Source: a virus
Taxonomy: Duplodnaviria > Heunggongvirae > Uroviricota > Caudoviricetes
Direction: 5' to 3' (one strand)
IMG/VR virus record: IMGVR_UViG_2513237251_000004
Length of the DNA stretch: 64,000 bases
Within the stretch, counting starts at the first letter, position 1, and every line of letters starts with the position of its first letter. This document shows, piece by piece, positions 8,272 through 8,870 of the stretch. Made by a program: the position numbers and the translations under genes. Under the pieces are notes generated by a model. That model ran no database searches. It was given only the letters and a program-made list of their open reading frames with translations, and was not told the DNA's origin.

Positions 8272-8298
8272 AAAATCGCCCTCACATTGGAGGGCAAA
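8272..8298 (-). terminator. Rho-independent terminator (minus strand) between orf156 and ea10
   Basis: GCCCTCCAATGTGAGGGC hairpin followed by GATTTTTTAT on minus strand. Confidence 0.5.
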
Positions 8299-8399
8299 GA
8301 AGATTTCCAATAATCAGAACAAGTCGGCTCCTGTTTAGTTACGAGCGACATTGCTCCGTGTATTCACTCGTTGGAATGAATACACAGTGCTTATTCGTA

Positions 8400-8870
8400 C
8401 TAATAAAATACCCAATTTTCTGTTTCTTGGTTGTGTCCAAAGTTATATTCAATATCTGGTGTTGATGTATCAATATTCTTCATACCATCAACAAGAGTTG
8501 ATACAACAGCCAAATCTTGTTTGATTCTCATTAAATGGTATTTCTTCCGGCGCAATAAACTTTCAATGGCAAGTTTCTTCGTTGGGAATGCAAAAGATCT
8601 TTCTGCATTTTTTGCTACTTTCTTAATTGCATATCTATTTCTCCTTTGTTTCCATTCCTGTAACCACTGATTTGGTGCTGGTTTAAAATTAACAATCCAA
8701 TGCGCAGGAACCAACCATGCATAATGCTCTGTCTGATGAAAAGCTATATATTGAAGTGCGAATATTTTTATCCCATCTTCTTCAACTGTCGCCTGGAATC
8801 TCCAGAAAACAGGCATTCCATCATGTTCAGTTTCTGATTCAGGAAAAGGTACGCTCCATGATTTTGTCAT
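8400..8870 (-). CDS. Hypothetical 156-aa protein in the N-ea10 interval (ral/sieB position)
   Basis: Single ORF, visibly AT-rich relative to the flanking lambda-like genes, followed by its own terminator; no recognisable motif. Confidence 0.5.
   Translation of the reverse strand: MTKSWSVPFPESETEHDGMPVFWRFQATVEEDGIKIFALQYIAFHQTEHYAWLVPAHWIVNFKPAPNQWLQEWKQRRNRYAIKKVAKNAERSFAFPTKKLAIESLLRRKKYHLMRIKQDLAVVSTLVDGMKNIDTSTPDIEYNFGHNQETENWVFY

Follow-up and report, generated by a model that had tools for sequence, protein, structure and literature searches.

In phage lambda, the interval between N and the ea10/cIII genes of the pL operon is taken up by ral, orf28 and sieB. A sequence-only reading of a 64,000-nt stretch of phage DNA (IMG/VR record IMGVR_UViG_2513237251_000004; this whole stretch is referred to as the window) placed a single 156-aa open reading frame at this position, described the position as one classically used by superinfection-exclusion or anti-restriction genes, and recognized no motif in the encoded protein. 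What is this gene, how is it delimited, where else does it occur, and what might its product do for the phage?

Genomic setting and identity of the 156-aa ORF

The first 25 kb of the window were 99.6-99.7% identical to Stx2a_F403 and Min27 over their full length and 99.4% identical to 933W over 79%, a similarity that marks the window as a Stx2a prophage of the Min27/Stx2a_F403/933W type. Around the ORF, the window was collinear with 933W (window coordinate + 135/136 corresponds to the NC_000924 coordinate). The unbroken alignment with 933W stopped at window position 13348, near cII/O. The 156-aa ORF was present between N and ea10 (Table 1), and its ATG was preceded, 4 bases away, by the strong Shine-Dalgarno sequence GAGGTG (8875-8880).

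Table 1. Features of the early-left region in window coordinates.
Feature	Position	Strand	Remarks
exo	5693-6373	minus	
bet	6370-7155	minus	
gam	7161-7577	minus	
kil/cIII	about 7532-7808	minus	
ea10 (DUF2528)	7881-8249	minus	lambda-type downstream neighbour
Intrinsic-terminator-like hairpin with U-run	8276-8297	minus	matches lambda ~33931-33952
Strong RNA hairpin, near-perfect 17-nt arms, without U-run	8353-8390	minus	10 nt after the stop codon
156-aa ORF (L0079/gp45)	8400-8870	minus	equals 933W L0079; phrog_1636 member
N-to-gene spacer	8871-8928	minus	about 60 bp; contains GAGGTG
38-aa ORF ending ..VTCVGRQKMKLGSKPLI	8879-8995	minus	runs from the 3' end of N into the spacer
N antiterminator, 933W/H-19B/HK97 type	8929-9312	minus	immediate upstream gene in the pL operon
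nutL/pL	between N and stk		
stk	9968-11014	minus	followed by a 153-aa ORF and a DUF3024 ORF
cI	11939-12646	minus	

The encoded protein was 100% identical to 933W L0079 (ST933Wp19, NP_049479.1) and to Min27 ORF20, and 99.4% identical to HK97 gp45 and to an unannotated H-19B ORF; it is called L0079/gp45 here. The gene is already known, being catalogued as "hypothetical protein" in 933W, HK97, H-19B, Min27, and about 80 other phage records. A tblastn search found it in 83 phage records, mostly Stx1a/Stx2a phages plus HK97-like phages, so that it occurs both in HK97-like siphoviruses and in 933W-like podoviruses; most Shiga-toxin phages carry it. In the protein collection, the exact protein was encoded on at least 1,000 contigs, always under the names "hypothetical" or "prophage protein". 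Among 5,426 complete E. coli genomes, 590 (about 11%) carried the gene at ≥80% coverage, with up to four full or partial matching places per genome. A literature search for L0079, ST933Wp19, NP_049479, phrog_1636, and HK97 gp45 retrieved no paper on the gene, and the mentions of "gp45" that were considered were rejected as belonging to other phages. What the present analysis adds is the definition of the cassette boundaries, a correction concerning the terminator, a survey of the genes that occupy the slot, the link to a superfamily, and a structural model.

L0079/gp45 is a real gene and not an artefact, and purifying selection on it is strong. The dN/dS ratio was 0.07-0.09 in unsaturated pairs, pN (0.04-0.27) was far below pS (0.30-1.0) in every pair, and 40 columns were invariant among 20 homologues of 55-85% identity. 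In the phi296 record (L106, 2736-3471), the homologue is called from a start 54 nt downstream of that used for 933W and HK97 (417 versus 471 nt), which is an annotation inconsistency between records.

The gene had been described as AT-rich and different in base composition from its surroundings. The first part of this description holds, with a GC content of 0.357 and a GC3 of 0.268, compared to 0.495 for the window, about 0.52 for exo/bet, and 0.49 for N. The second part holds only toward these genes, because other neighbours are also AT-rich: ea10 has a GC content of 0.382, and stk and the 153-aa ORF about 0.35. From nutL to cI, an AT-rich block (9801-11878, minus strand; GC about 0.35) lies on the strand of cI and contains the eukaryotic-like Ser/Thr kinase gene stk, the 153-aa ORF, which is annotated as RuvC-like, the DUF3024 ORF, and a 54-aa ORF, all of them additional accessory genes of the immunity region.

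Boundaries of the gene and its terminator

Homology to lambda (97-98.6%) extended from window position 4693 to 8390, corresponding to lambda 30347-34045, and the junction between lambda and non-lambda sequence was located at 8390/8391, just 10 bp beyond the stop codon of L0079/gp45. The flanks had been called lambda-identical; the left one reaches only the identity given above, and on the right N is of the 933W/H-19B/HK97 type. Since the homology ends at 8390 and N is non-lambda, L0079/gp45 is not an insert between two lambda-identical flanks. It is located at the edge of the non-lambda immunity-region block. The proposed position itself was borne out, as L0079/gp45 takes the place of the lambda ral-orf28-sieB interval.

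The claim that the gene has its own terminator needs a similar division. A hairpin with a U-run is indeed found downstream of the gene; however, it is lambda sequence, and in lambda this terminator and the 8353-8390 hairpin follow ral. Because both elements lie inside lambda-homologous sequence, they represent an inter-cassette element held in common and not a private terminator of L0079/gp45. The 148-nt 3' region (8255-8402) folds with a z-score of -4.6, and hairpin and terminator accompany the gene in HK97 and in approximately half of the prophage contexts examined. The 8353-8390 hairpin may serve in the processing or stability of the RNA, or it may mark a recombination boundary. An Rfam scan found no RNA family in or beside the gene; the only match nearby was the cIII thermosensor, a full-length match to the Lambda_thermo cIII thermoregulator (RF01804; 7763-7821, minus strand; 88.5 bits, E 1.2e-21).

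The neighbouring ea10 (7828-8297) is bounded by two terminator-like hairpins at 7838-7857 and 8276-8297. HK97 lacks exactly the segment corresponding to window 7868-8264, and both flanks are joined precisely there. Thus ea10 is itself a terminator-bounded cassette.

On the upstream side, a 38-aa ORF reaches from the 3' end of N into the spacer (Table 1). Its C-terminus was 65% identical to residues 117-133 of lambda N, and in other prophages the same DNA forms the genuine 3' end of a lambda-type/21-like N gene, 9 nt upstream of the cassette. The segment 8879-8995 is a relic of the C-terminus of a lambda/21-type N, marking the upstream cassette boundary. This relic is probably a homologous linker for swapping N genes and the cassette, and its presence at the boundary explains the recombination that has joined the cassette to many different N genes.

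A mobile cassette in a variable slot

The survey of the slot across prophages that had been proposed was carried out on 80 IMG/VR prophage loci with the gene, all with 100% protein identity; identical DNA was located in 79 of them. Upstream, the nearest ORF encoded an N-type antiterminator, of which at least five kinds were seen, or was another small gene. Downstream, it was Ea10 in 20 loci, the cIII region in 18, a 121-aa ORF in 9, a TolA-like ORF in 5, and other ORFs in the rest. Homology breakpoints were recurrent at 8886-8932 on the N side, and on the distal side they fell either at 8392-8400 or at 8256-8270, the latter taking in the hairpin and the terminator. The identical gene was combined with three recombination modules in these prophages, namely Red (Gam/Bet), Erf/Abc2, and Rad52/SSB. 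L0079/gp45 is a horizontally mobile single-gene cassette; it is optional and exchanged, and so belongs to the accessory genes and not to the phage core.

About 750 further E. coli genomes have only the 60-bp N-proximal spacer in common with the window. Behind that spacer, Ral (locus L011), a DUF7167 protein (L012), or an 83-aa hypothetical protein (L014) was encoded, and in an E. coli plasmid-prophage (L013) the order was N-Nmad5-L0079/gp45-TolA-like-cIII. Shared by genomes with other slot genes, the spacer serves as a linker for recombination. The region following N is a variable accessory slot with several alternative occupants, which agrees with the positional part of the sequence-only reading, and L0079/gp45, as one of these accessory genes, is an unremarkable type of element at a position known to vary among lambdoid phages.

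Ral was absent from all 80 loci with the identical gene, yet in phage phi296 the order was N-x-x-Ral-homologue-..-kil, with Ral directly upstream of the homologue. Ral and L0079/gp45 are thus usually alternatives but not strictly exclusive, and the tandem arrangement in phi296 weakens the simple reading that one replaces the other.

Distant relatives and their gene contexts

Homologues at 55-85% identity were found only in Enterobacterales prophages (Cronobacter, Pectobacterium, Brenneria, Rosenbergiella, Symbiopectobacterium, and one Salmonella phage), and among the GTDB representative genomes the close family was restricted to Escherichia, Rosenbergiella, Brenneria, and Pectobacterium. When 1.84 billion representative proteins were searched with an HMM, the family extended to 87 clusters at E ≤1e-3, the clusters of this superfamily (about 87) being defined at 50% identity; a few were truncated copies or spurious, and most members were 125-165 aa long at approximately 20-28% identity. 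The superfamily reaches lambdoid prophages and N4-like, Vibrio, Pseudomonas, Rhizobium, and Bacteroidota phages, is phage-only, and occurs in temperate as well as in strictly lytic phages. All 51 members of the superfamily alignment also matched phrog_1636. Longer matches, considered as possible domain fusions, were rejected, since they were either a spurious repeat protein (DUF7507, P0066) or had no significant domain match.

The contexts of the relatives have early genes in common, often near genes of recombination or DNA metabolism. In Cronobacter, the order was N-(gap)-homologue-cIII, and in Pectobacterium and Brenneria the homologue shared an operon with RecT/YqaJ and was followed next by xis-int. 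One Vibrio phage has it after a cro-like HTH gene, adjoining a RecT/exonuclease operon, and another near primase; a metagenomic phage has it downstream of RecT/YqaJ/CsrA. In Pseudomonas phage Medea1, the homologue lies near methyltransferases and an integrase, and in the N4-like Delftia and Achromobacter phages amid early and DNA-metabolism genes.

A gene of the Nmad5 family (putative nucleotide modification) was located within 1 kb of a family member in two very distant contexts, the E. coli plasmid-prophage mentioned above (L013, 3044-3667) and a Vibrio parahaemolyticus phage whose homologue is 28% identical (L006, 7448-8080). This proximity could reflect chance or a functional link.

Protein features and predicted structure

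L0079/gp45 is an 18.6-kDa protein with a pI of 9.1, no cysteines, and seven tryptophans. Its charge is unevenly distributed: residues 1-60 have a pI of 5.0, residues 61-120 a pI of 11.1 with 17 K/R, and residues 121-156 a pI of 4.05. No membrane or hydrophobic segment was detected, the maximum 19-residue hydropathy being 0.56.

With a shallow alignment, AF2 gave a model with a pLDDT of 60; with the 51-sequence superfamily alignment, the pLDDT was 95.5 and the pTM 0.83. This second model featured strands at 19-30, 33-46, 50-55, and 83-86, short helices at 56-61 and 66-74, a long amphipathic helix at 98-130, and an ordered C-terminal tail. From the N- to the C-terminus, the model consists of an acidic domain of antiparallel beta strands, a strongly basic centre, the amphipathic helix, and an acidic aromatic tail. 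The predicted fold may have some similarity to small beta-barrels of the SH3/Tudor/KOW type (PWWP, PipX, the UvrD/PcrA C-terminal Tudor, and NusG KOW). The fold of L0079/gp45 is a confidently predicted one without a solved relative. Only G33, K87, and A101 were near-invariant in the superfamily alignment, which gives no sign of a catalytic centre and suggests an apparently non-enzymatic protein.

Homology searches likewise gave no informative match. The match to phrog_1636 was full-length (E 2.7e-112, residues 1-156 against profile positions 1-156 of 156), and every PHROG family matched by L0079/gp45 and its relatives is labelled as of unknown function. Searches of Pfam, NCBIfam, PADLOC, and PDB sequences, run both for L0079/gp45 itself and for the profile of 51 sequences, returned only noise; the sole match among the PADLOC-DB 2.0 models was Cas1_II (E 0.018, 12.4 bits, 45 residues), which is at noise level. 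A strand-helix likeness to AP2 and the N-terminus of lambda Int (..RFAFxTKEEA..) was rejected after hhalign gave it probabilities of 0.3% and 0.8%. In a published analysis, anti-defence models (AntiDefenseFinder) applied to the gene-carrying phages phi345, phi296, phi315, and their relatives detected only methyltransferases, Ral, and Gam (PMC12502783).

Comparison with known systems

Ral of lambda is the closest analogue by position. Its gene takes the same position behind N in the pL operon, the same hairpin and terminator come after it, and in other prophages it is found in place of L0079/gp45 behind the shared N-proximal spacer. Like L0079/gp45, Ral is a small and soluble accessory protein of the early phase. 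However, Ral has 66 aa compared to 156 aa for L0079/gp45, the two show no sequence similarity, and Ral was not among the Pfam matches up to E 1. The gene for SieB of lambda and P22 is also located between N and ea10/cIII. L0079/gp45 differs from SieB in having no match to it in Pfam, no hydrophobic segment, and no detectable promoter of its own: a consensus scan of the gene's strand over 8871-9560 found no sigma-70-like site, although the scan is crude and the gene may yet be expressed in lysogens. As judged from these searches, L0079/gp45 belongs to neither Ral nor SieB nor any known defence family.

Juhala and co-workers reportedly described, in 2000, the morons of HK97 and HK022 as cassettes of promoter, gene, and terminator with atypical composition. 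L0079/gp45 resembles these elements as an AT-rich single gene with a downstream terminator, sharp boundaries, and patchy presence between conserved genes. In contrast to morons, it has no promoter that could be found, lies in the early operon and not in the late region, and has a terminator common to other cassettes. L0079/gp45 meets only part of the moron definition.

Possible role

Tentatively, we favour for L0079/gp45 a role in counter-defence or host takeover, exerted early, in dependence on pL and N, and by binding without enzymatic activity. Located directly behind N in the pL operon, the gene would be expressed early in infection or induction under N antitermination. Early expression is supported by its location 58 bp downstream of N on the same strand, by the strong Shine-Dalgarno sequence in front of it, by the lack of any promoter-like site on its strand, and also by the relatives in Cronobacter, Pectobacterium, Brenneria, and metagenomic phages, which always lie in an early operon with recombination genes. 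The predicted structure suggests that the protein would work by binding nucleic acid or an acidic host-protein surface; the 17 K/R of the basic centre, flanked by acidic ends, and the lack of a membrane segment point to a binder. The target may be a host factor that is neutralised or redirected early, most plausibly one of defence or of a phage-limiting nucleic-acid transaction. Such a role would be analogous, although not by sequence, to those of Ral, Gam, and Abc2 of the same operon, and because L0079/gp45 is dispensable, patchy, and exchanged as they are, counter-defence or host takeover is the likeliest role for it.

Known counter-defence genes are present in this slot and operon, Ral being located in the same slot in lambda and in L011. 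A 2026 preprint (10.64898/2026.07.10.737580) reports that anti-defence genes form a hotspot associated with phage recombination loci, which fits the counter-defence reading. Guilt by position is nevertheless weak, as the pL operon also holds the regulator cIII, the host-killing gene kil, and ea10. Many known DNA-mimic anti-restriction proteins are acidic, and the basic core of L0079/gp45 counts against counter-defence in this respect, as does the fact that the published AntiDefenseFinder run on phages with the gene did not flag it. Of the two functions originally suggested for the slot, superinfection exclusion is less likely than anti-restriction, given that no promoter-like site and no membrane segment were found and that the pL operon is repressed by cI. 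A broader proposal is that L0079/gp45 founds a phage-only superfamily with a fold absent from the PDB and represents an unrecognised class of counter-defence or host-takeover proteins, for example one that binds nucleic acid or a nucleic-acid-handling defence component; we regard this proposal as doubtful.

The relatives amid DNA-metabolism genes in N4-like phages, and the one beside a cro-like gene in Vibrio, fit a replication or regulatory role equally well. L0079/gp45 might be a regulator of phage development, an early binder of nucleic acid or RNA polymerase that tunes transcription, antitermination, RNA stability, or the lysis-lysogeny decision, which we consider unlikely. An accessory factor of recombination, replication, or DNA metabolism, such as a DNA-end or ssDNA binder or a modulator of RecBCD or of a recombinase, would agree with the basic core, with the setting of the N4-like homologues, and with the repeated location of the gene near exo/bet/gam (window), erf/abc2 (HK97), and Rad52/SSB (L013), or of its homologues near RecT or YqaJ (L003, L004, L006, L108). 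However, this proximity is partly trivial because the early-left operon always contains recombination genes; the identical protein accompanies three unrelated recombinase systems, which argues against a specific partner, and lambda and many lambdoid phages have the same Red module without the gene. Such an accessory role is improbable on this balance.

The least probable reading is that of a moron expressed from the prophage that guards the lysogen by defence or superinfection exclusion, like SieB, Rex, or the 933W Stk kinase: the AT-rich single gene followed by a terminator has the classic moron layout, occupies the slot that holds sieB in lambda, and is carried by many prophages, being very common in E. 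coli, but no sigma-70-like promoter lies between N and the ORF on its strand, it is embedded in a cI-repressed, N-dependent transcript, its terminator is shared with ral, which is not a lysogen-expressed gene, its product has no membrane segment, PADLOC match above noise, or conserved catalytic residues, and homologues occur in strictly lytic N4-like phages, where guarding lysogens makes no sense.

Implications

L0079/gp45 is carried by the best-studied Shiga-toxin phages (933W, H-19B, Min27, phi24B, and BP-4795) and by the model phage HK97, and for 25 years it has been without a function, a Pfam family, or a structural relative. As things stand, it is another conserved hypothetical gene, in a slot whose variability was known before. 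Because HK97 is safe and genetically tractable and the gene is ubiquitous in Stx phages, L0079/gp45 is a well-defined and readily testable candidate. If the tentatively favoured counter-defence role is true, the gene would be relevant to the range of E. coli strains that Stx phages can infect and lysogenise; if a regulatory role is true, it would bear on the induction of Stx prophages.
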